A stretch of DNA of 40,820 nt from an uncultured Thermoplasmatales archaeon (GTDB taxonomy: Archaea; Thermoplasmatota; SW-10-69-26), in assembly GCA_964464425.1 (NCBI GenBank), contig CAYXGD010000001.1:1-40820 (forward strand), in the 5' to 3' direction. Made by a program: the position numbers and the translations under genes. The notes below the pieces were generated by a model. The model was not told the DNA's origin and made no database searches. It saw only the letters and a program-made list of their open reading frames with translations. Each line of letters begins with the position of its first letter. The first letter of the stretch is position 1. Shown here piece by piece: positions 11,153 to 38,787 of this stretch.

Positions 11153-12843
11153 CAGCGGCCTACGTAGGCCAGCAGATCCTCCAAGGGACCCGCGTTGAGG
11201 ACGTGCTCGGACGTCAGCCACCCCTTCCGGGCTTGATCGACGCCCAGGCGCATCGTCTCCATGCCAGCGGGGGCGTGGGCATCGGTGGAGATGACGAACC
11301 GGGCCTTGTCGCGGAACCGATGAACGTCGAGCCAGTCCAGGTCGAGCCGGTTCGGCTGCGCGTTGATCTCGATGGCGATCCTGTGGTCGGCCGCGGCCTC
11401 GACGATGGCGGGCATGTCCAGATCGTTGCCCTCTCGTTGCCCGATCAGTCGGTTGGTCGGGTGGGCGAAGATATCGACCGGGTAGGCCTCGAACGCGTGG
11501 AGGACCCGATCGGTCGCATCGCTGACCGTGTCGTGGAGCGAGGCGACGACGAGGTCGAGCTCCTCGCACACCTCCGGGGGGACATCCATCCCGTCCCGGG
11601 TGATGTTGGCCTCGACGCCGTGTAGCACCCGGACGCCGTCGACGGCCTCATCGGCCTCCCGGACCTCCTCCCCCTGTTCAGCCAGCTCCTCCAGGGTCGG
11701 GGCCCCGGTGACGGTCAACGAGGGTCCGTGGTCGGTGATCAGGATGTAGCTGTACCCGAGCTCAGCGGCCTTCCGGGCCATGGCCTCGACGCTCTCCTTG
11801 CCGTCGCTCCAGGTGGTGTGCATCTGCAGATCCCCCTGGATGTCCTCGAGGGTGACGAGCTCAGGCAAGTCGTCCTCCCCGGCCCGTTGAACCTCGCCGA
11901 GACCCTCGCGCATCTCGGGCGGGATCCACGTCATCCCGAGCGCACCGTACACCTCGTCCTCAGTGGCGCCAGCGAGCTGGGTCCCGTCCTCCTCGTACAC
12001 CCCGTACTCGTTGACCTTCAGCCCGCGAGCCTGGGCCCGGCTGCGGACCTCGACGTTGTGGTCCTTGGACCCGGTGAAGTATTGGAGTGCAGCCCCCCAC
12101 GACGACGGGTCGACCACACGCACATCGACCTGGAGCCCGTCCCGGGTCACGATCGACGCCTTGGTCTCGCCCTGCCCGAGCACGCGGTCCACCATCTCGA
12201 GACCGGCGACGGTCTCCAACGCCTCGACCGGTGCGTGGGCGGTGGCCAGCAGGTCGACGTCTCCCACGGTGGGGGTCCGTCGCCGGAACGATCCGGCCGG
12301 CTCCAGGCGGTCGAACCGGCCGGTCGCCAGGAGTGTCTCGGTCAGGTCGGCGACGATCGCCTCGGCCTTCCCCAGGAGGGTCCTCTGCCGGGCCTCCCGG
12401 ACGAACCCGATGTGATCGAGGATCTTCCCCTGGGTCGTCTTCCCGAAGCCCTTGACCTCGGCGACCCGGCCGTCCCGGGCCGCCGCCTCCAGGCTGTCGA
12501 GGTCGGTGACGTCCAGCGCTTCGTAGAGCTTCTTGATGCCCTTCGGGCCCAAGCCCTGGACCGCCAGCAGGCCGGGGACATCCACGGGCACCTCCTCACG
12601 AACGGTCTCCAAGGCGGTCATGGTCCCCGCTTCGAGGTACTCGGCGACCTTCTCCGCGATGGCTTGGCCGACCCCGTCGATGCTCTCGAGGTCACCCTCG
12701 GCGTGAACCTCCTCGATCGGGGCCTGGAGGGTCTCGATGTTCCGCGCGGCCTTCCGGTATGCTCGAGCTTCCCACTCGTCCCCCTTGACGTCGCTGTAGT
12801 CGGCCAGCTCGTTGAGGACCTCGGCGACCTCGGCGTTGCGCAT
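11152..12843 (-). CDS. polX: Family X DNA polymerase with a C-terminal PHP phosphoesterase domain
   Basis: The N-terminal HhH/8-kDa-like region (MRNAEVAEVLNELADY…AYRKAARNI) is followed by a nucleotidyltransferase core (GSFRRRTPTVGDVDLL). A PHP domain follows, with motifs DLQMHTTWSDG, ITDHG, LHGVEANI, ASLHD and STDAH. Confidence 0.9.
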   Translation of the reverse strand: MRNAEVAEVLNELADYSDVKGDEWEARAYRKAARNIETLQAPIEEVHAEGDLESIDGVGQAIAEKVAEYLEAGTMTALETVREEVPVDVPGLLAVQGLGPKGIKKLYEALDVTDLDSLEAAARDGRVAEVKGFGKTTQGKILDHIGFVREARQRTLLGKAEAIVADLTETLLATGRFDRLEPAGSFRRRTPTVGDVDLLATAHAPVEALETVAGLEMVDRVLGQGETKASIVTRDGLQVDVRVVDPSSWGAALQYFTGSKDHNVEVRSRAQARGLKVNEYGVYEEDGTQLAGATEDEVYGALGMTWIPPEMREGLGEVQRAGEDDLPELVTLEDIQGDLQMHTTWSDGKESVEAMARKAAELGYSYILITDHGPSLTVTGAPTLEELAEQGEEVREADEAVDGVRVLHGVEANITRDGMDVPPEVCEELDLVVASLHDTVSDATDRVLHAFEAYPVDIFAHPTNRLIGQREGNDLDMPAIVEAAADHRIAIEINAQPNRLDLDWLDVHRFRDKARFVISTDAHAPAGMETMRLGVDQARKGWLTSEHVLNAGPLEDLLAYVGR

Positions 12844-12916
12844 CAGGTCACGGGTCAGGCTCTGGCGAGCCTCAAGGTTTCGGGGTCCACCGGTCCACGA
12901 GCACGGAGCGGGGGAT

Positions 12917-13026
12917 GCCGGCCGAACCCGGTGGGTCGGCGGTGTGGTTCAACCTCTCGCGAGGCCCTTGTCGTAGCATTGTCGGACCTCGCGATCGAAC
13001 AGGGGGTTCAGATCCCTCTCTGAGAA
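12917..13026. repeat. Decayed copy of the hairpin-repeat family (see 16745-17145 and 38005-38520)
   Basis: Contains GCCGAACC…GGTTC (12921-12950), CCTCTCGCGAGG/GACCTCGCGA, GGTTCAGATCC (13005-13015) and CTCTCTGAGAAC (13015-13026). These are the same stem and junction words as the two intact arrays, but the pairing is eroded. Confidence 0.5.
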
Positions 13027-13040
13027 CGATACGGTTGGAA

Positions 13041-13123
13041 CGCGGGGCGGGGGATTCGAACCCCCGGGTGCAAAGCACACAGAGTTAGCAACCCTGCGCC
13101 TTACCAGGCTAGGCAAGCCCCGC
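13041..13123 (-). tRNA. tRNA-Ser (anticodon GCU), long variable arm, no encoded CCA
   Basis: The minus strand reads GCGGGGC-TT-GCCT…AGGC-G-CAGGG-TTGCTAA-CTCTG-TGTGCTTTGCACCC-GGGGG-TTCGAAT-CCCCC-GCCCCGC-G. It has a 7-bp acceptor stem, a GGTTCGAATCC T-arm, a GTGC/GCAC variable-arm hairpin and anticodon GCT at loop positions 34-36. Confidence 0.9.
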
Positions 13124-13147
13124 AGCGGGTGGGCTGCGAAGCCAACT

Positions 13148-16744: not shown

Positions 16745-17145
16745 CGACCGGTCTGGCCGTTGGGATGGGAGCGTGGGCGCGAAGGTCGCCGCTTCGCTGT
16801 GGTCCCGGCAACCGGCGTGGTTGGAGGTCGACCTGGGGCGGTTGGTGTGGTCGACCTCCAGATTCGCCCGAACCGGGGGGTCTCTGCAGGTTCGGGCGCT
16901 CTGAACCTCGCCCCTATCCGGTGGTCCAGGCAGGTGGTGTGGTCGACCTCCAGATCCACCCGGATCGGAGATCCGGGTTCTCTGAACCTCGCCGTTATGC
17001 TGTGGTCCCGGCGAGCGGTGTGGTTGGAGACCGGTTCTGGGTGGTTGGTGGACCGGTCTCCAGATCTGCCCGAACCGTCCGGTCGGTGTCGGTTCGGGCG
17101 CTCTGAACCTCGCCCCTATCCGGTGGTCTCGGCGAGGTTCAGATC
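16745..17145. repeat. Hairpin-repeat array 1: about 8 consecutive GC-rich stem-loops (REP/BIME- or MITE-like family)
   Basis: Perfect stems were read from the sequence. They are 16822-16833/16849-16860 (12 bp), 16865-16874/16889-16898 (10 bp) and 16958-16966/16970-16978 (9 bp, loop GGA). Further stems are 17025-17035/17052-17062 (11 bp), 17068-17076/17091-17099 (9 bp) and 17102-17114/17131-17143 (13 bp). Junction words CAGATC and CTCTGA recur. Loops share GGTTGGTGTGG-like and CTATCCGG words. Exact or near-exact blocks are shared with 38005-38520. Confidence 0.85.
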
Positions 17146-17684
17146 ACTTCGCCTTCGAGGAGCTTCTCGATCTTGTACGGGAGAAGGTTCCGGTTGATCG
17201 GGGTGACCTCGAGGATCCTGATGTCGTCCCGGCGCCGGATGTCCTGGAGCAACGGGTTCCTGGACTTCTTGTGGAGGGTCATGATCATGGACTTGTCGGA
17301 GTCCAGCGCGGCCTTGACCGCGTCGCAGAAGGCTGGGCTTTCCATCTCCATCTTGCCCACCTCGTCGACGACGATGACCTCGGCCTCCTCGATGGCGCGC
17401 AGGATGGCGCTCACACCGATGTCCTCGAGCACATCGAGGTCGACCCCGTACTTGCCGACGCGGACCTCGCTGTCGAGGTCGACGTGGGCCAGCGTGTCGG
17501 TCTCCTTGGTCAGCCAGTCCTGGATATGGAACCCCTTGCGTTGGCCGGCTTCCTCGATGGCTTCGGTCACCATCCCGCCGACGATGGTCTCCTTGCCTTC
17601 CAGTTTCTCGATGATCTTGAGGATGGTCTGGGTCTTGCCCACAGAGGGCATGCCGGTGATGCCGATCTTGGCTGCGTGGGCCAT
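17139..17684 (-). CDS. Nucleoside-triphosphatase THEP1 family (P-loop NTPase)
   Basis: The Walker A motif is GITGMPSVGKTQ, the Walker B-like motif is VIVVDEVGKME, and the length (181 aa) is typical of archaeal THEP1. Its last two codons and the TGA stop lie inside the 3' arm of hairpin 17131-17143. Confidence 0.85.
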   Translation of the reverse strand: MAHAAKIGITGMPSVGKTQTILKIIEKLEGKETIVGGMVTEAIEEAGQRKGFHIQDWLTKETDTLAHVDLDSEVRVGKYGVDLDVLEDIGVSAILRAIEEAEVIVVDEVGKMEMESPAFCDAVKAALDSDKSMIMTLHKKSRNPLLQDIRRRDDIRILEVTPINRNLLPYKIEKLLEGEVI

Positions 17685-30918: not shown

Positions 30919-32193
30919 TCAGCCGTCGGCCACGATGCGGACCTCGGGTTCCACGACCTCGATCGCGCCGGTCTGGGTGACCCGCCAGAACGCGAAGGTG
31001 GCCTCGGTCGGATCGCCGGTCGCGTTCCAGTGGGCGGAGGCGGACACGGTCTCGTAGTCGATGGCCTCGCCGGTGGCCGCCGCGCCGAGCCCGATGTCCA
31101 GGCTGCCAGGGGTGATCGACCGGCCCGGCGGGTCCCAGACGCTGCGCAAGCACGCGGAGACGGCGTCGGGGTCCGTGCTTTGCGCGGCCGCCATGCCCAA
31201 CAGGATCGTGACCGCAGCGTCGTAGGCCTCCCCGGCGAACAGACCTGGGGCGTGACCGTAAGCCTCGGTGAACCGTTGCCGGAACGCCGGGTCGGCGCCT
31301 TGGGCCAGGAACGCCGTCGGTGCGGTCCCCGGGCTCCCAGTCAAGAGCGTCGGCTGGCCGGTTCGGTTGCGGACCCGGTCGACGAACGCATGGCTGAGCG
31401 AGCCTTCGGTGAACACGAGCTCGCGGCCGTCAAGCAACCCGTGCTCGTGGGCCTGGGCTAGCAGGTCGACCCCTGGGTCCGGGAAGCCGACGTAGACGAT
31501 CGTGGCAGGGTCGGCAGCCTCGGCCTGCCTGATGGCCTGGCTGTGGTTCTGGCTGGATGCCACGACCGGGATCGTCGCGGTCACCTGGGCGGTCTGACGG
31601 TCCTCAAGGGAGGCTTGGAGGTTCTGTGTGATCGCCCGGCCGTAGCTGGTGTCCAGGTGGAGGACGGCCACCGATCCTGCGCCCCTCTCGTCCAAGAGCT
31701 GGGCCAGGGCCACACCCTGGAGCCCGTCGCTCGGCGGCACCCGGAAGAACCGATCGCCAGCGTCAGCGGCCGACAAGCGGTCGCTGGTCGCGCCTGGCGT
31801 CACGATCAAAGTCCCAGCACCGTCGGTCTGGTTGAGCACGCCGAGGGCGGCCGAGGAGCTGACCGGTCCGACGATCGCGGTCACGCCCTGCTGGGTCAAG
31901 CGGTCGGCGGCTGTCCGGCTGACCGAGACCGTGCTGGCCGTGTCCGCGTGGAGGACCTCCACCTGGCGACCGAACAGCCCGCCGGCCAGGTTGACGTCCT
32001 GGATGGCGAGGTCCACCGCTCGCTTCAGGTCCGGCCCGATGCTGGAGAGGCGTCCGGTCACCGGGAGCAGCGTACCGATGACCGGCTGGCCCTGGTCACC
32101 GGCCTCTGGGCAGGGCCGGGCCACCGGTTCCCCGGTGCAGCCGGCCAGGGCGACGGCGACGATCACGACGGCTCCCAGCAGCTCGGTGCGCAT
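30919..32193 (-). CDS. ABC transporter substrate-binding lipoprotein (Leu/Ile/Val-binding, type-1 PBP family)
   Basis: Starts at the ATG at 32193: MRTELLGAVVIVAVALAGC (lipobox). The body (IGTLLPVTGRLSSIGPDLKRAVDLAIQDVN…) is typical of the LivJ/K family. The 116 upstream codons in the track are an over-extension. Confidence 0.85.
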   Translation of the reverse strand: MRTELLGAVVIVAVALAGCTGEPVARPCPEAGDQGQPVIGTLLPVTGRLSSIGPDLKRAVDLAIQDVNLAGGLFGRQVEVLHADTASTVSVSRTAADRLTQQGVTAIVGPVSSSAALGVLNQTDGAGTLIVTPGATSDRLSAADAGDRFFRVPPSDGLQGVALAQLLDERGAGSVAVLHLDTSYGRAITQNLQASLEDRQTAQVTATIPVVASSQNHSQAIRQAEAADPATIVYVGFPDPGVDLLAQAHEHGLLDGRELVFTEGSLSHAFVDRVRNRTGQPTLLTGSPGTAPTAFLAQGADPAFRQRFTEAYGHAPGLFAGEAYDAAVTILLGMAAAQSTDPDAVSACLRSVWDPPGRSITPGSLDIGLGAAATGEAIDYETVSASAHWNATGDPTEATFAFWRVTQTGAIEVVEPEVRIVADG

Positions 32194-32434
32194 CGGCAGG
32201 CGGGCATGGTCCCCGGCGCGGTAAGAACATCCCGGTCTTGCACCGCGCTGGCCCGAGGCGCCGGTCGCAGGCCGACGACCACACCGAAAGCCATAATCGA
32301 GGCCTCGGGCGTTGCCCGCCTGGTCCGGCCCGCGCCGGCCAGCCAGGGGAAGAGCATGGAAGCACGCCAGAGGGTCGCTGTCACGTCTGCCGCTGGAAGG
32401 GTGCACGACGACCCCGAGCCCGCCCGGTGACGGC

Positions 32435-33562
32435 ATGGCCAGCTGGCTACAGACCGTCCTCGAGGGCCTCCCGGGCGCGCTGGTCAACGGCGTCGTCCTC
32501 GGCACGATCATCGCCCTGGCCGCCGTCGGGCTGACCCTCATCTACGGGGTCCTGCAGATCCCAACCTTCGCTCACGGGGACGTCCTGACCCTCGGCGCCT
32601 ACCTGGGCTGGGCGCTCCTGGCACCGGCCGGCCTGGCGGCCAGCGCCAACTGGCTGGGCCTGGCAGCGGCGCTGCTCACCGTCGCCGTGGGCATCGTCCT
32701 CTACACGCGCGACCTGCTCACCCGGCGCACCGCAGCCGTCCTGACCGTCCTGGCCGTGCTGGCCGTGACCTGGGACGTGTGGACCATGCTGGCCCCCGGC
32801 CTCCAGGGGTTCCTGGGGTCGGTGGTGCAGGACGGCGCACGCATGGCGAGCGCCCTGGCCACCGCGGCCTTGGCGATGGCCGGGTTGGGCGTGGCCAGCC
32901 ACTACCTCCTCTGGCGGCCGCTCAAGCGCCGAGGGGCCAAGATGGTCATGCTGATGATCGCCAGCATCGGGCTGGCGTTCTTCCTCCGAGGTGTCATCCA
33001 GTTCATCTGGCAAGGCCAGCGACGCATCTACGCGCTCAACATCCCCGAGCTCGTCTACGCGCCGATGGCCACGCGGATCACCAGCCACGAGATCGTCGCC
33101 TTCCTGGTCGCCGCGCTCGGGGTCGTCGGCGTCCACCTCTTCCTCACCCGGACGACCACCGGCAAGATGATGCGCGCCCTGGCCGACAACCCGGACCTGG
33201 CCCTGGTCACCGGCATCGACGTGCCGCGGCTGACCAGGCTCACGTGGGGGCTGGGCTCAGCGCTGGCGGGGGCCGCTGGGGTGCTCTACGCCTCCATCCA
33301 GCAGGGGTTGACGCCTGAGACCGGATGGATCCTCTTGCTCAGCATCTTCGCTGCCGTCATCCTCGGCGGCATCGGCAGCGCCCAGGGAGCCATCCTAGCC
33401 TCGCTGATCATCTTCGTCGCCCAAGAGGTCAGCGTCGTACTGACCGCCCCCCTCGACGTCCCCTTGCTGGGTCCCGAGTACAAGGTCGCCGTCGGGTTCG
33501 GGATCCTGATCTTGACCCTCCTGGTCCGGCCCCAGGGGCTGATGGGGGTGGAGGTCCGATGA
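32435..33562 (+). CDS. livH: Branched-chain amino-acid ABC transporter permease (LivH family) with an insertion of about 60 aa
   Basis: Starts at the ATG at 32435 (MASWLQTVLEGLPGALVNGVVLGTIIALAAVGLTLIYGV…FAHGD). The family C-terminal motif is AAVILGGIGSAQGA. The segment between the FAHGD motif and the …WRPLKRRG loop is visibly longer than in E. coli LivH and contains extra hydrophobic helices. Confidence 0.85.
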   Translation: MASWLQTVLEGLPGALVNGVVLGTIIALAAVGLTLIYGVLQIPTFAHGDVLTLGAYLGWALLAPAGLAASANWLGLAAALLTVAVGIVLYTRDLLTRRTAAVLTVLAVLAVTWDVWTMLAPGLQGFLGSVVQDGARMASALATAALAMAGLGVASHYLLWRPLKRRGAKMVMLMIASIGLAFFLRGVIQFIWQGQRRIYALNIPELVYAPMATRITSHEIVAFLVAALGVVGVHLFLTRTTTGKMMRALADNPDLALVTGIDVPRLTRLTWGLGSALAGAAGVLYASIQQGLTPETGWILLLSIFAAVILGGIGSAQGAILASLIIFVAQEVSVVLTAPLDVPLLGPEYKVAVGFGILILTLLVRPQGLMGVEVR

Positions 33563-36530: not shown

Positions 36531-37910
36531 CTAGGATCCGCCGACCTTGAACGGCTCACCGGTCTGGATCGTGCCGTTGTTGTCGACCTGCCAGAAGGCG
36601 TAGGTTCCGCTGACGACCTCACCCCGGTCGTCCCACTGGAGATCGCTGGCGGCGCCGATCCAATCGATGTCCTGGCCAGCGCTCAGCAGGGTGAAGGCCT
36701 GATCCAGGTCGTGGGTCTGGACCCCCGGCGGGTTGGCGACCCGGCGCATGTGATCCTGCCAGACCGTGGGATCGGTGGAGTCGGCGCTGTGGATCGCCAG
36801 CAGCATGTAGATCGCCGCGTCGTAGCTCTCGGCGGCGAACAGCCCGGGCGCGTGGCCGTACTTCTCCTCGAACTCCTGCTGGAACTCGCCGCTGGCGTTG
36901 GTGCTCCCGGCGGGGGTGGTCCCCTGGAAGCCGCGGAGAGCCGGCTCGCCGTCGGCGTCGTCGCCGACGTTGTCGACGAAGTCCTGGGACTTGACGCCCT
37001 CGCTGAAGTAGACCGGGAACTCGCCCAGCCGACCGTCGTTGAGGAGCCCCGTGTAGATCGGGACGCCGGCCCCTGGGTAGCCGATGAAGACAAGGGCGTC
37101 GAAGTCGCCGGAGGTGGCCTCGCTGGCCTCCGTGTCGAAGGAGGAGGCGTCCTCGTCGTAGAGGATGGTCTTGCCGACGTCGCCCTCGAAGGCATCCTCG
37201 AGCGTGTTGGCGAAGCCCTTGCCGTAGTCGTTGTTGACGGCCAGGATGTTGATGGACTCGCAGCCGTCATCCTGGAGCAACTGGGCCATGGCGCGTCCCT
37301 GCAGGGAGTCCGGCGGGGGCACCCGGTAGAAGAACCCGTTGTTCTCCCGCTCGGTCAGGGTCGGGGACGTGCTGGCCGGGGTGGTCAGCACGATCTCGTT
37401 CTGGACGGCGGTGGGCAGGATGCTACCGGTCACACCGGATGAGGCGGCCCCGACGACGCCGACGACACCCTCCTCGATCAGCCGCTGGAGCTCCTGGGGA
37501 GCAGCCGACGGGTCGGTCTGGGTGTCGCCCTCGATGACCTCGACCGACCGCTGGCCCAGCAGGCCACCGGAGGAGACGTTGTTGGCCTGGTCGGCGGCCA
37601 TGCGGACAGCGCGGGCCATGTCGCCCCCGAAGTCCTGGAGGCCGCCGCTTAGCGGCAGCATGAACCCGAGCGTGACCGTGTCACCGGTCTGCTGGAGCGC
37701 AGCCGGGGCCACTGGGGCCGCTTCGGCGTCCCCTGGAGCCGGGTCCAGGGTAGAGGCAGCGGTCCCTTCCATGGAACCACCCAGCCCCTCACACGTCGTC
37801 ACCCGTTCGCCAGCGCCACCATCTTGGGTGGTGGTGCAACCGGCGAGCCCAACCGTGAGAAGCGCCACGGCCATCATCCAAACAGCATGGTTCCTATCTA
37901 ACACGCCCAT
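36531..37910 (-). CDS. Second ABC transporter substrate-binding lipoprotein (Leu/Ile/Val-binding family)
   Basis: The N-terminus is MGVLDRNHAVWMMAVALLTVGLAGC (lipobox), followed by a Thr/Gly/Ala-rich linker and a type-1 PBP body (VTLGFMLPLSGGLQDFGGDMARAVRMAADQAN…). Confidence 0.85.
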   Translation of the reverse strand: MGVLDRNHAVWMMAVALLTVGLAGCTTTQDGGAGERVTTCEGLGGSMEGTAASTLDPAPGDAEAAPVAPAALQQTGDTVTLGFMLPLSGGLQDFGGDMARAVRMAADQANNVSSGGLLGQRSVEVIEGDTQTDPSAAPQELQRLIEEGVVGVVGAASSGVTGSILPTAVQNEIVLTTPASTSPTLTERENNGFFYRVPPPDSLQGRAMAQLLQDDGCESINILAVNNDYGKGFANTLEDAFEGDVGKTILYDEDASSFDTEASEATSGDFDALVFIGYPGAGVPIYTGLLNDGRLGEFPVYFSEGVKSQDFVDNVGDDADGEPALRGFQGTTPAGSTNASGEFQQEFEEKYGHAPGLFAAESYDAAIYMLLAIHSADSTDPTVWQDHMRRVANPPGVQTHDLDQAFTLLSAGQDIDWIGAASDLQWDDRGEVVSGTYAFWQVDNNGTIQTGEPFKVGGS

Positions 37911-37938
37911 AGGTCAACCCGAGGCGCGAAGCCCCAGG

Positions 37939-37951
37939 CCCCTTCAAAAGC
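37939..37951 (-). promoter_or_regulatory. TATA-like box (minus-strand GCTTTTGAAGGGG)
   Basis: About 36 nt upstream of the ATG at 37910. It separates the gene from hairpin array 2. Confidence 0.4.
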
Positions 37952-38004
37952 ATGTCGAAGCCCCGTGGTCTCCCGCCGATCACGGCGCAGAGCAGCCCAG
38001 GCCA

Positions 38005-38520
38005 GGATCCACCGGGCAGCCAGACCGGCCGCTGTGGTGGGGGTTGATCCGGTAGGATGTGAGGCTGGAGGTCGCCCTGGTGTGGTTGGTGTGGTCGACC
38101 TCCAGAGCCTGTCCGAACCGAGCGGTCGTTGCGGGTTCGGACGCTCTGACGGCCTCTATCCGCGCGGGTGCTTCGGCCGTCAGATCCGCCCGGATCGGAG
38201 ATTCGGGCTCTCTGAACCTCGCCTCTGCGCGGTTGGTGTGGCGAGTTGTGTTGCTGGAGGTCGCCCTGGTGTGGTTGGTGTGGTCGACCTCCAGAGCCTG
38301 TCCGAACCGAGCGGTCGTTGCGGGTTCGGACGCTCTGACGGCCTCTATCCGCGCGGGTGCTTCGGCCGTCAGATCCGCCCGGATCGGAGATCCGGGCTCT
38401 CTGAACCTCGCCTCTGCGCGGTTGGTGTGGCGAGGTTCAGATCCGACCGAACCGAGCTGTGGGTGCCGGTTCGGTCTCTCTGAGCCCCCGCGGTGGTACC
38501 GGTGGCCCAGCGGGGCCTCA
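38005..38520. repeat. Hairpin-repeat array 2: about 12 consecutive stem-loops, same family as 16745-17145
   Basis: Stems read from the sequence include 38065-38077/38093-38105 (12 of 13 pairs), 38111-38119/38134-38142 (9 bp) and 38145-38154/38175-38184 (10 bp). Others are 38188-38196/38200-38208 (9 bp with one G-T), 38400-38411/38430-38441 (12 bp), 38445-38453/38468-38476 (9 bp) and 38486-38491/38510-38515 (6 bp). An exact 23-mer, GGTTGGTGTGGTCGACCTCCAGA, occurs at 38084-38106 and at 16840-16862. Confidence 0.85.
38064..38441. repeat. Tandem direct duplication, period 189 bp, inside array 2
   Basis: 38064-38245 equals 38253-38434 apart from one mismatch that I could find by eye (T at 38203 versus C at 38392). 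Each unit carries five hairpins. The fifth hairpin of copy 1 is truncated at the junction (GCGAG|TTGTGTT). Confidence 0.9.
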
Positions 38521-38787
38521 AAGCCGTCCGACGTCCTCGCAGGAGACGGACTCGACGCCTTGGATCTTGGCGAAGGAATCCTCGAGGCCATCGACCGAGA
38601 TCTCCTCGGTGTCCTCCATGCGGAGGGTCACGTGGATGGCCTTGAGCCCGAAGGCGACGGGCTTGACCTCGGCGCTCTCCCAGGTGACACCCTCCGGGAT
38701 GACGTCCTTGGCTTGCTCTTGGAGGGCGTCCAGGTCGCTCTCGACGCTCTCCGGCATGATCTTGAAGACGGCGATAAGTTCACCCAT
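38518..38787 (-). CDS. Translation elongation factor aEF-1 beta
   Basis: 89 aa: MGELIAVFKIMPESVESDLDALQEQAKDVIPEG…VKPVAFGLKAIHVTLRMEDTE…VESVSCEDVGRL. This is the typical archaeal EF-1beta length and sequence pattern, preceded by its usual Zn-ribbon partner gene. Confidence 0.9.
   Translation of the reverse strand: MGELIAVFKIMPESVESDLDALQEQAKDVIPEGVTWESAEVKPVAFGLKAIHVTLRMEDTEEISVDGLEDSFAKIQGVESVSCEDVGRL

Follow-up and report, generated by a model that had tools for sequence, protein, structure and literature searches.

Arrays of short GC-rich palindromic modules, possibly akin to bacterial repetitive extragenic palindromes, behind genes of an uncultured Thermoplasmatota archaeon

The window considered here is an entire 40,820-bp contig (CAYXGD010000001.1; GC content 69%) from an uncultured Thermoplasmatales archaeon, and all hairpin and cluster counts given below cover that stretch. 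The subject is a family of short hairpins packed into arrays directly behind genes. The larger array (array 2) spans 38024-38522 and lies between two minus-strand genes, those for aEF-1beta and for a Peripla_BP_6 substrate-binding protein; array 1 lies 21 kb away, between the minus-strand genes for a THEP1-type NTPase and an LTD-domain protein; and a third cluster is found downstream of a tRNA-Ser(GCT) gene. Altogether, at least 22 hairpins are present at these three loci in 40.8 kb. A sequence-only reading that preceded this analysis had placed about 12 stem-loops in the 607-bp spacer 37911-38517 between the aEF-1beta and binding-protein genes. Both genes have been correctly named, and 12 clear hairpins are indeed found if the imperfect ones are counted, along with one decayed module.

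Such an accumulation of hairpins is far from what base composition provides. A perfect hairpin was defined as a stem of at least 9 bp with a loop of 3-24 nt, and a first-order Markov model served as the null. By this measure, the 607-bp spacer contains nine distinct perfect hairpins against 0.09 expected on average (null maximum 2), and the array-1 spacer contains six where 0.06 would be expected. Outside these two spacers, 39.8 kb of the window hold just five, and the density of perfect hairpins in unrelated high-GC DNA is 0.39 per kb. The predicted fold energy over 481 nt of array 2 is -251 kcal/mol, and relative to shuffles, z is -9.95 for the minus strand and -8.65 for the plus strand. As both strands are equally extreme, fold energy was rejected as a guide to the transcribed strand.

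The hairpin units measure 21-44 bp with stems of 9-13 bp, and they belong to two types. In T-type hairpins (A, A', C, E, and G), the stem ends are TCTGR...YCAGA, the interior varies while staying self-complementary, and the loop is 15-21 nt long, its orientation being uniform within the window; C-type hairpins (B, F, and D) are built on CGAACC/GGTTCG or CGGATC/GATCCG cores. In both arrays, the two types strictly alternate, with 0-7 nt between hairpins and short conserved linkers (GC, TCC, and TC). They are different sequences and not inverted copies of one another. Class C had already been singled out from the letters alone as an additional class sharing the TCTGA/TCAGA ends and having a different, still self-complementary interior; this description holds, and the class occurs twice. 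The plus-strand order of array 2 is (E0-like remnant)-A-B-C-D-E*-A-B-C-D-E-F-G, with the members listed in Table 1. The 12 hairpins should not be taken for independent units, because about half of them stem from one recent tandem duplication.

Table 1. Positions of the arrays, their hairpins, and the adjoining genes in the window.
Feature	Positions	Strand	Remarks
Decayed E-like module	38024..38063		promoter-side edge of array 2; keeps E-type loop motif GCTGTGGT; aligns to the E* position
Hairpin A, T-type	38065..38105		CTGGAGGTCGcCC / GGtCGACCTCCAG, loop motif GGTTGGTGTGG
Hairpin B, C-type	38111..38142		GTCCGAACC / GGTTCGGAC
Hairpin C, T-type	38145..38184		TCTGACGGCC / GGCCGTCAGA
Hairpin D, C-type	38188..38208		GCCCGGATC gga GATtCGGGC; one G.T on the plus strand
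Hairpin E*	38211..38245		TCTGAACCTCGCC ... GGCGAG; paired stem limited to the inner 6 bp (CTCGCC/GGCGAG)
Hairpin A, second copy	38254..38294		
Hairpin B, second copy	38300..38331		
Hairpin C, second copy	38334..38373		
Hairpin D, second copy	38377..38397		perfect
Hairpin E, full length	38400..38441		13-bp stem, TCTGAACCTCGCC / GGCGAGGTTCAGA
Hairpin F, C-type, B-like	38445..38476		GACCGAACCG / CGGTTCGGTC
Hairpin G, T-type	38479..38522		TCTGAGCCCCCGC / GCGGGGCCTCAAA; gene-side arm holds the last codon and stop codon (38518-38520) of aEF-1beta
Recent tandem duplication	38064..38434		189-bp unit, 2.0 copies, 99% identity (Tandem Repeats Finder)
Array 1, same hairpin family	16781..17143		last hairpin contains the NTPase stop codon (17139-17141); A' is a compensated stem variant
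Third family cluster	12890..13039		downstream of tRNA-Ser(GCT) (13040-13124, minus strand)
aEF-1beta gene	38518..38787	-	array 2 directly downstream, same strand
Peripla_BP_6 substrate-binding protein gene	36531..37910	-	downstream of array 2, same strand
Native upstream/promoter block of the binding-protein gene	37911..37966	-	kept in relative L078; outside the array

Array 1 reads (E0 remnant)-A-B-(E/A hybrid)-D-E*-A'-B-E on the plus strand, and the two arrays become collinear when units of about 200 bp are aligned. The unit, approximately 190-200 bp long, has the form E*-linker-A-B-X-D; position X is occupied by E in array 1 and by C in array 2. The E-F-G tail of array 2 aligns to the A-B-X positions. 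Unit order is therefore conserved between the arrays with members swapped within it, which makes the repeat a composite unit. E* is joined to the following A by a linker that is similar in both arrays (cggtgtggt, ggcgtggt, and ttgtgttg, the last being the copy after the E* at 38211-38245), forming an E*-A double module, and the E/A hybrid of array 1 looks like such a module with an internal deletion. Moreover, the stem interiors of A and A' are GTCGACC and ACCGGT, respectively, both being perfect, and the E stem carries either of two loops, the A-type loop (GCGGTTGGTGT) being one. Thus, the family is a mosaic in which one stem takes different loops, interiors vary, and hybrids exist.

That arrays 1 and 2 belong to the same hairpin family had been proposed from shared blocks, and these blocks are real: the exact 23-mer GGTTGGTGTGGTCGACCTCCAGA is identical at 38084 and 16840, with a further copy at 38273, and the segments 38370-38412 and 16951-16993 agree at 41 of 43 positions. 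Overall identity between the arrays is about 65-76%, with exact islands. Islands of this quality at loci 21 kb apart, against roughly 70% identity overall, argue for exchange between loci rather than for one duplication. It might still be supposed that no family exists and that the two arrays represent just a single segmental duplication or an error of assembly, given that a 189-bp unit is present in two nearly identical copies, a situation that short-read assemblers can misjudge. Such a view is highly improbable, as it is at odds with the overall identity, with C standing for E at one unit position, with the compensated stem variants, with the third cluster beside tRNA-Ser, and with related arrays in independent assemblies of relatives. 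A single segmental duplication was accordingly rejected.

The placement of the arrays is precise. Each sits between two minus-strand genes and extends from the stop codon of the upstream gene to a point before the next promoter. Read along the sense strand, array 1 has its beginning within the stop codon of the NTPase gene (ATC-TGA-ACCTCGCC...) and stops about 90 nt short of the ATG of the gene for the LTD-domain protein. In array 2, the first element is hairpin G, with the CTT-TGA of aEF-1beta in its arm, and the array ends before a block conserved in relative L078 that holds the presumed promoter of the binding-protein gene. The TGA stop codon is located inside the outer TCTGA/TTTGA arm of the first T-type hairpin in three of three arrays after protein genes (17139-17143 and 38518-38522 in the window, and 2240-2244 in relative L079); array-less relatives have a TAG or TAA stop or a different context. 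Neither target-site duplications nor flanking direct repeats were found above the shuffle level at arrays 1 and 2. As a separate observation, the 3' arm of E, GGCGAGGTTCAGA, resembles the end of the NTPase gene, which is GGCGAAGTGATCTGA in the window (17125-17160) and GGCGAGGTCATCTAG in L070 (4555-4575), and this gene end is also able to pair with the adjoining E arm. The likeness may reflect a direct-inverted-direct layout as at the tRNA genes described below, or it may be a coincidence.

Relatives, cited here by locus numbers (L066 to L079), were reached via the flanking proteins. In L066 and L072-L075, where the NTPase is 85-86% identical, the NTPase-LTD spacer is only 80-88 bp long and bears no array. 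In L078 (aEF-1beta 91% identical, same gene order), the spacer between the aEF-1beta and binding-protein genes is 262 bp long and contains a single hairpin after the stop codon, homologous to hairpin G, with the promoter block kept. Since arrays are absent from the same spacers in relatives at 85-91% identity, they are insertions or expansions specific to the window's lineage, placed exactly after a stop codon and ahead of the next gene's promoter region, which is intact.

The closest relative, L079 (NTPase 95% identical), does have an array at the same NTPase stop codon, composed of different members, while its flanking coding DNA differs from the window at one of about 62 nt. Its hairpins include TCTGAAGGTCGCC/GGCGACCTTCAGA, of the type of the window's E0 remnant and related to E by a compensated GG/CC swap, GGACGAACCG/CGGTTCGTCC, and TCTCAGGACCAG.../...CTGGTCCTGAGA, the latter with its loop in the opposite orientation. 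Members that differ between near-identical flanks indicate turnover by member replacement and not by point mutation. Arrays of this family change fast, by tandem duplication, internal deletion, and member replacement. The L079 contig ends (at 2363) about 120 nt into its hairpin array, which is consistent with hairpin arrays breaking short-read assemblies. In L066, two overlapping perfect 10-bp hairpins are situated at 11217-11276 in the spacer between the LTD-protein and RNase HII genes, a spacer that is overlapping or absent in the window; hence, hairpins occur at other gene ends in the clade as well.

The sequence-only reading had gone further and spoken of a high-density dispersed family. 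The third cluster beside tRNA-Ser and the differently composed array of L079 at the array-1 site speak for its family interpretation. A high-density dispersed family is not established, since the window is a whole contig, exact-pattern database scans gave chance matches, and about half of the 12 hairpins go back to one duplication.

When both arrays were compared by blast with the loci of relatives, no sequence-level homology beyond chance words was detected, and the relatedness to the relatives' arrays is visible just in motif cores and architecture. Hairpins with the B core (CGAACC...GGTTCG) occur ten times in arrays within 171 kb of DNA from the clade and are absent from 446 kb of unrelated high-GC DNA. 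In an alignment of eight B-type hairpins from four genomes, 100% of cells are paired, with four pair types at one position and two at another; the covariation score is 0.362 compared with 0.104 in shuffles, and none of 500 shuffles matched it. The stems stay complementary via two-sided changes. As for the loops, the motifs CTTCGCTGTG[G/A]..CC and CGGTGGT are common to the window and L070/L071 despite different stems.

Arrays are also linked to tRNA genes. The window's cluster beside tRNA-Ser(GCT) includes two hairpins, a B-like one (GGCCGAACC...GGTTCAACC) and TCGCGAGG...CCTCGCGA; the family's junction motifs (GGTTCAGATCC and CTCTCTGA) are present as well, along with a degenerate copy of the 3' end of this tRNA. 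In relatives, arrays lie directly 3' of tRNA-Ser(GCT) or tRNA-Leu(CAG) and are flanked on both sides by direct copies (15-17 nt) of the 3' end of the local tRNA (L072 14050-14290; L075 4860-5225; L066 14050-14480; L070 4690-5110; L071 3250-3445). At the orthologous site of L072, the tRNA end GAATCCCGCTCCCCGCG is followed by 191 bp with five hairpins, an identical 17-mer, and then a native oligo-T terminator. Copy number varies between close genomes: L075 has an extra 142-bp unit compared with L072, L066 bears a duplicated pair of units at its tRNA-Ser site, and two assemblies encoding the identical NTPase differ at tRNA-Leu, with a single unit in L071 and two in L070. These arrays also contain inverted T-arm fragments of the same tRNA, and both the direct and the inverted fragments match each species' own tRNA variant. 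Tandem reiteration together with flanking DNA has been described for bacterial repetitive extragenic palindromes, or REPs (PMC3733652). Reiteration in this style explains part of the tRNA-linked pattern, though not the inverted fragments.

We consider array 2 to represent a family of short GC-rich palindromic DNA modules of a halophilic Thermoplasmatota clade that resembles REPs and their clusters, the bacterial interspersed mosaic elements (BIMEs); the probability of this reading is put at about 0.55. The hairpin excess, lineage-specific insertion or expansion between a stop codon and the next promoter, the lack of target-site duplication, fast turnover, compensated stems, exchange between loci, the composite unit, and the clade-wide distribution are its observed basis. 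According to the mechanism proposed, modules would move between loci as hairpin-forming DNA, either through an enzyme that acts in trans and recognises hairpins (a Y1/HUH transposase, for instance) or by gene conversion, and unequal recombination or slippage would make arrays longer or shorter. Transcribed along with the upstream gene, an array may form a very stable 3' stem-loop block that hinders 3'-to-5' decay and read-through. Because the first stem engulfs the stop codon, translation termination might be affected too. Liang, Rudd, and Deutscher reportedly found in 2015 that in E. coli, REPs located near a stop codon have an effect on termination and on how strongly the gene upstream is expressed, and by analogy such an effect could extend to these arrays.

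Several observations weigh against the REP/BIME-like reading. No transposase (including Y1), integrase, other mobility gene, or cas gene is encoded in the window, and no mobility gene appears among the Pfam labels of the related loci in relatives. Most described REPs are marked by an unpaired GTAG or CGTC tag that defines two superfamilies (PMC3733652). In the arrays, no GTAG is adjacent to any hairpin, the T-type ends are paired TCTGR/YCAGA, and CGTC is present just inside the paired stem of class C; for this reason, the family is termed REP/BIME-like and not a member of the REP family. The exact E-class pattern (CTCTGAACCTCGCC N12-22 GGCGAG) gave chance matches only in GTDB species genomes (185,579) and JGI metagenomes, that is, 27 and 38 single matches, respectively, all coding or unrelated, and scans of IMG/VR with the E pattern, an A-arm 19-mer, and the D hairpin returned coding chance matches (a primase-like gene) or nothing. 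In contrast to classical REPs, the arrays have long loops, with some loop motifs recurring under different stems. On the sense strand, internal stem mismatches are of the G.U type in six or seven cases and of the A.C type in one, which hints at a constraint at the RNA level, and T-type loops are C/A-rich on that strand at four independent loci, one L079 hairpin being an exception. Finally, the tRNA fragments in each species match its own tRNA, a fact that fits local generation better than the import of a ready-made element.

The strand-related observations bear on an alternative in which the arrays are primarily structured RNA, namely 3'-UTR (untranslated region) stem-loop arrays or small-RNA precursors selected on the sense strand of the upstream gene or tRNA; recognition would fall on the loops, which are ACCAC/ACCAA-rich on that strand, and the stems could covary freely. 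The excess of G.U-type mismatches and the shared orientation of T-type loops to the upstream gene would be expected in this case, as would the recurrence of loop motifs under different stems in the window and L070/L071 (GGGTCACAGCGAA and CACCACCGCGAAG), a decayed copy in L066 that stays paired via two wobbles, and the stop codon within the first stem. It is more difficult to reconcile with selection on RNA that relatives with about 98% DNA identity in the flanking genes show wholesale replacement of members, that copy number differs within a species, and that one L079 T-type hairpin has an inverted loop. Besides, the fold z-scores do not separate the strands, the wobble positions are too few for a firm test, and Rfam 15 at the gathering threshold yields tRNA-Ser as the sole match in the window, with no match in 37900-38560 even at E<=1. 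Taken together, these points leave a primary RNA role rather unlikely. A constraint on the sense transcript is weakly favoured by the data, and it is insufficient to outweigh the DNA-level turnover and copy-number evidence.

A further loop feature concerns the opposite strand. Six copies of the motif GGTTGGTG(T)GG are present in the window (16840, 17043, 38084, 38231, 38273, and 38420), all of them in array loops and on the plus strand, the antisense strand for the flanking genes. The motif is similar to that of a two-tetrad G-quadruplex, which could matter where internal potassium is high. The G-quadruplex idea for the GGTTGGTGTGG loops was not adopted, as G2-tract patterns in general are only about 3-fold enriched.

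The tRNA-linked arrays, in turn, bring up the possibility that hairpins are made in place at gene 3' ends without transposition: through template switching during replication or repair, and through tandem duplication, inverted and direct copies of local sequence would arise, the palindromes so created would be kept perfect, and the likeness between loci would be due to occasional gene conversion. The bracketing by local tRNA 3'-end copies, the inverted T-arm fragments in the own-species variant, and the native terminator of L072 after the second tRNA-end copy fit this scheme; tandem duplications are evident, and there is a likeness between the E arm GGCGAGGTTCAGA and the end of the NTPase gene, GGCGA(A/G)GTGATCTGA. 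The latter likeness was noticed post hoc, however, and is weaker in L079. The scheme does not readily account for the same stem classes (E, A, B, and D), a collinear five-hairpin unit, and an exact 23-mer after two unrelated genes 21 kb apart, which require sequence transfer between loci, nor for a B core common to the clade at different loci. Formation purely in place is therefore regarded as doubtful, with a low probability.

An equally low weight is given to a more radical proposal, in which the arrays belong to an archaeal repeat system distinct from REPs and the REP-associated tyrosine transposases (RAYTs): arrays seeded at 3' ends by copying the gene's own terminal sequence both inverted and direct, serving as a clade-wide regulatory or processing device and not as selfish DNA. 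In such a system, target-primed or template-switch synthesis, or a mini-integration directed by tRNA ends, would operate at the 3' ends of both tRNA and protein genes, and the conserved ACCA-rich loops on the sense transcript might be read by a dedicated factor.

The genomic setting is that of an ordinary archaeal chromosome, judging by GC content at third codon positions (GC3) and Pfam. Apart from aEF-1beta, the NTPase, and one tRNA-Ser(GCT), the window encodes an HVO_2753-type zinc-finger protein, RNase HII, archaetidylserine-pathway enzymes, PolX, TatC, two Liv-type binding proteins with their ABC transporter genes, and histidine kinases. The two Peripla_BP_6 genes (30919-32541 and 36531-37910) are divergent and both on the minus strand, with a plus-strand operon for Liv-type permease and ATPase between them; it is the second one that adjoins array 2. 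'Thermoplasmatales archaeon SW_10_69_26' has an NTPase with 85% identity to the one in the window, for which the best matches are metagenome-assembled genomes (MAGs) from salt lakes and salt crusts, on which basis the host is taken to be an uncultured halophilic Thermoplasmatota archaeon, probably of the group called Haloplasmatales. Long open reading frames (ORFs) crossing the arrays (e.g., 37965-38483 on the plus strand) fail the GC3 criterion, which all real genes of the window pass, so their coding potential was rejected. In practice, arrays of this kind yield long spurious ORFs across spacers and may break short-read assemblies of the clade.

Two isolated matches to class E deserve mention. 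An exact 17-nt match, TGAACCTCGCCGAGACC, to the E arm and the start of its loop lies in the PolX gene (11888-11904; blastn-short E = 7e-4) and was judged a probable chance event because it is ordinary coding sequence. Two contigs of the Anaerolineaceae MAG SRP167436_co1_209 bear a hairpin CTGAACCTCGCC...GGCGAGGTTCAG with the 12-bp stem of class E nested in a larger palindrome (L015 about 914-955 and L025 2380-2421), probably a coincidence with an unrelated repeat.

Repeated palindromes and hairpins also characterise other known systems. A clustered regularly interspaced short palindromic repeat (CRISPR) array consists of repeated palindromes, and integron attC sites resemble the T-type hairpins in having conserved outer stem bases and inner stems that vary freely and remain complementary. 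In the window, however, at least five different stem classes are interleaved, the hairpins directly abut with 0-7 nt between them, no constant-length unique spacers and no gene cassettes are seen, and neither cas genes nor an integrase are encoded. Both a CRISPR array and an attC/cassette array were thus rejected, their combined chance being negligible.

Another parallel is provided by the palindrome-associated transposable elements and miniature inverted-repeat transposable elements (PATEs/MITEs) derived from IS200/IS605 in haloarchaea such as Haloquadratum (PMC3119063). These too bear hairpins, lack terminal inverted repeats and target-site duplications, and occur in halophilic archaea. Elements of this group have subterminal hairpins and insert 3' of a fixed short target; the arrays could conceivably have done something similar, given that T(C/T)TGA marks the start of each one that follows a protein gene. 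Instead of one left-end and one right-end hairpin, however, the arrays contain at least five different packed hairpins; element ends are not definable, and tnpA/tnpB are found neither in the window nor among the Pfam labels of the related loci.

Intergenic palindromic elements of archaea have been counted in the RepRanger survey (PMC12306157), with more of them in GC-rich genomes; its putative REPs are all intergenic palindromic elements minus predicted intrinsic terminators. The passages of this survey covered by our search describe no composite arrays, tRNA-end duplications, or halophilic Thermoplasmatota. Likewise, the portions of the literature covered by our search contain no description of composite T/C arrays, of the stop-codon placement, or of tRNA-end duplications in halophilic Thermoplasmatota.

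The best comparison is offered by the REP/BIME clusters of E. coli, Pseudomonas, and Stenotrophomonas, mobilised by RAYT Y1 transposases (PMC3733652, PMC2817692). REPs usually exceed 100 copies per genome, and the cognate RAYT gene is typically flanked by REPs. The arrays share with them the short GC-rich palindrome (about 20-45 bp); the extragenic position, as all three clusters lie in spacers between genes according to GC3 and Pfam; several sequence classes; location at gene 3' ends; and lineage-specific sequences. Two kinds of module alternate in mosaic clusters with short conserved linkers in both systems, and both display presence/absence and copy-number polymorphism and tandem reiteration with flanking DNA. 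The differences concern the loops, which are 12-21 nt long here with motifs recurring under different stems, the archaeal host, the stop codon in the first stem, and the lack of a RAYT gene in the window and in the Pfam labels of related loci. Furthermore, REPs alternate in orientation within a BIME, whereas the T and C types are different sequences with a uniform loop orientation in the window. If a cognate enzyme or an RNA-level role is found, hairpin-based mobile DNA or 3'-end control would extend to halophilic Thermoplasmatota. While REP/BIME elements are well studied in bacteria, archaeal ones appear, in the literature covered by our search, only as generic intergenic palindromes; the arrays add to them a sequence-defined archaeal case, with a composite unit, insertion and expansion polymorphisms between close relatives, covarying stems, and a link to tRNA 3' ends.

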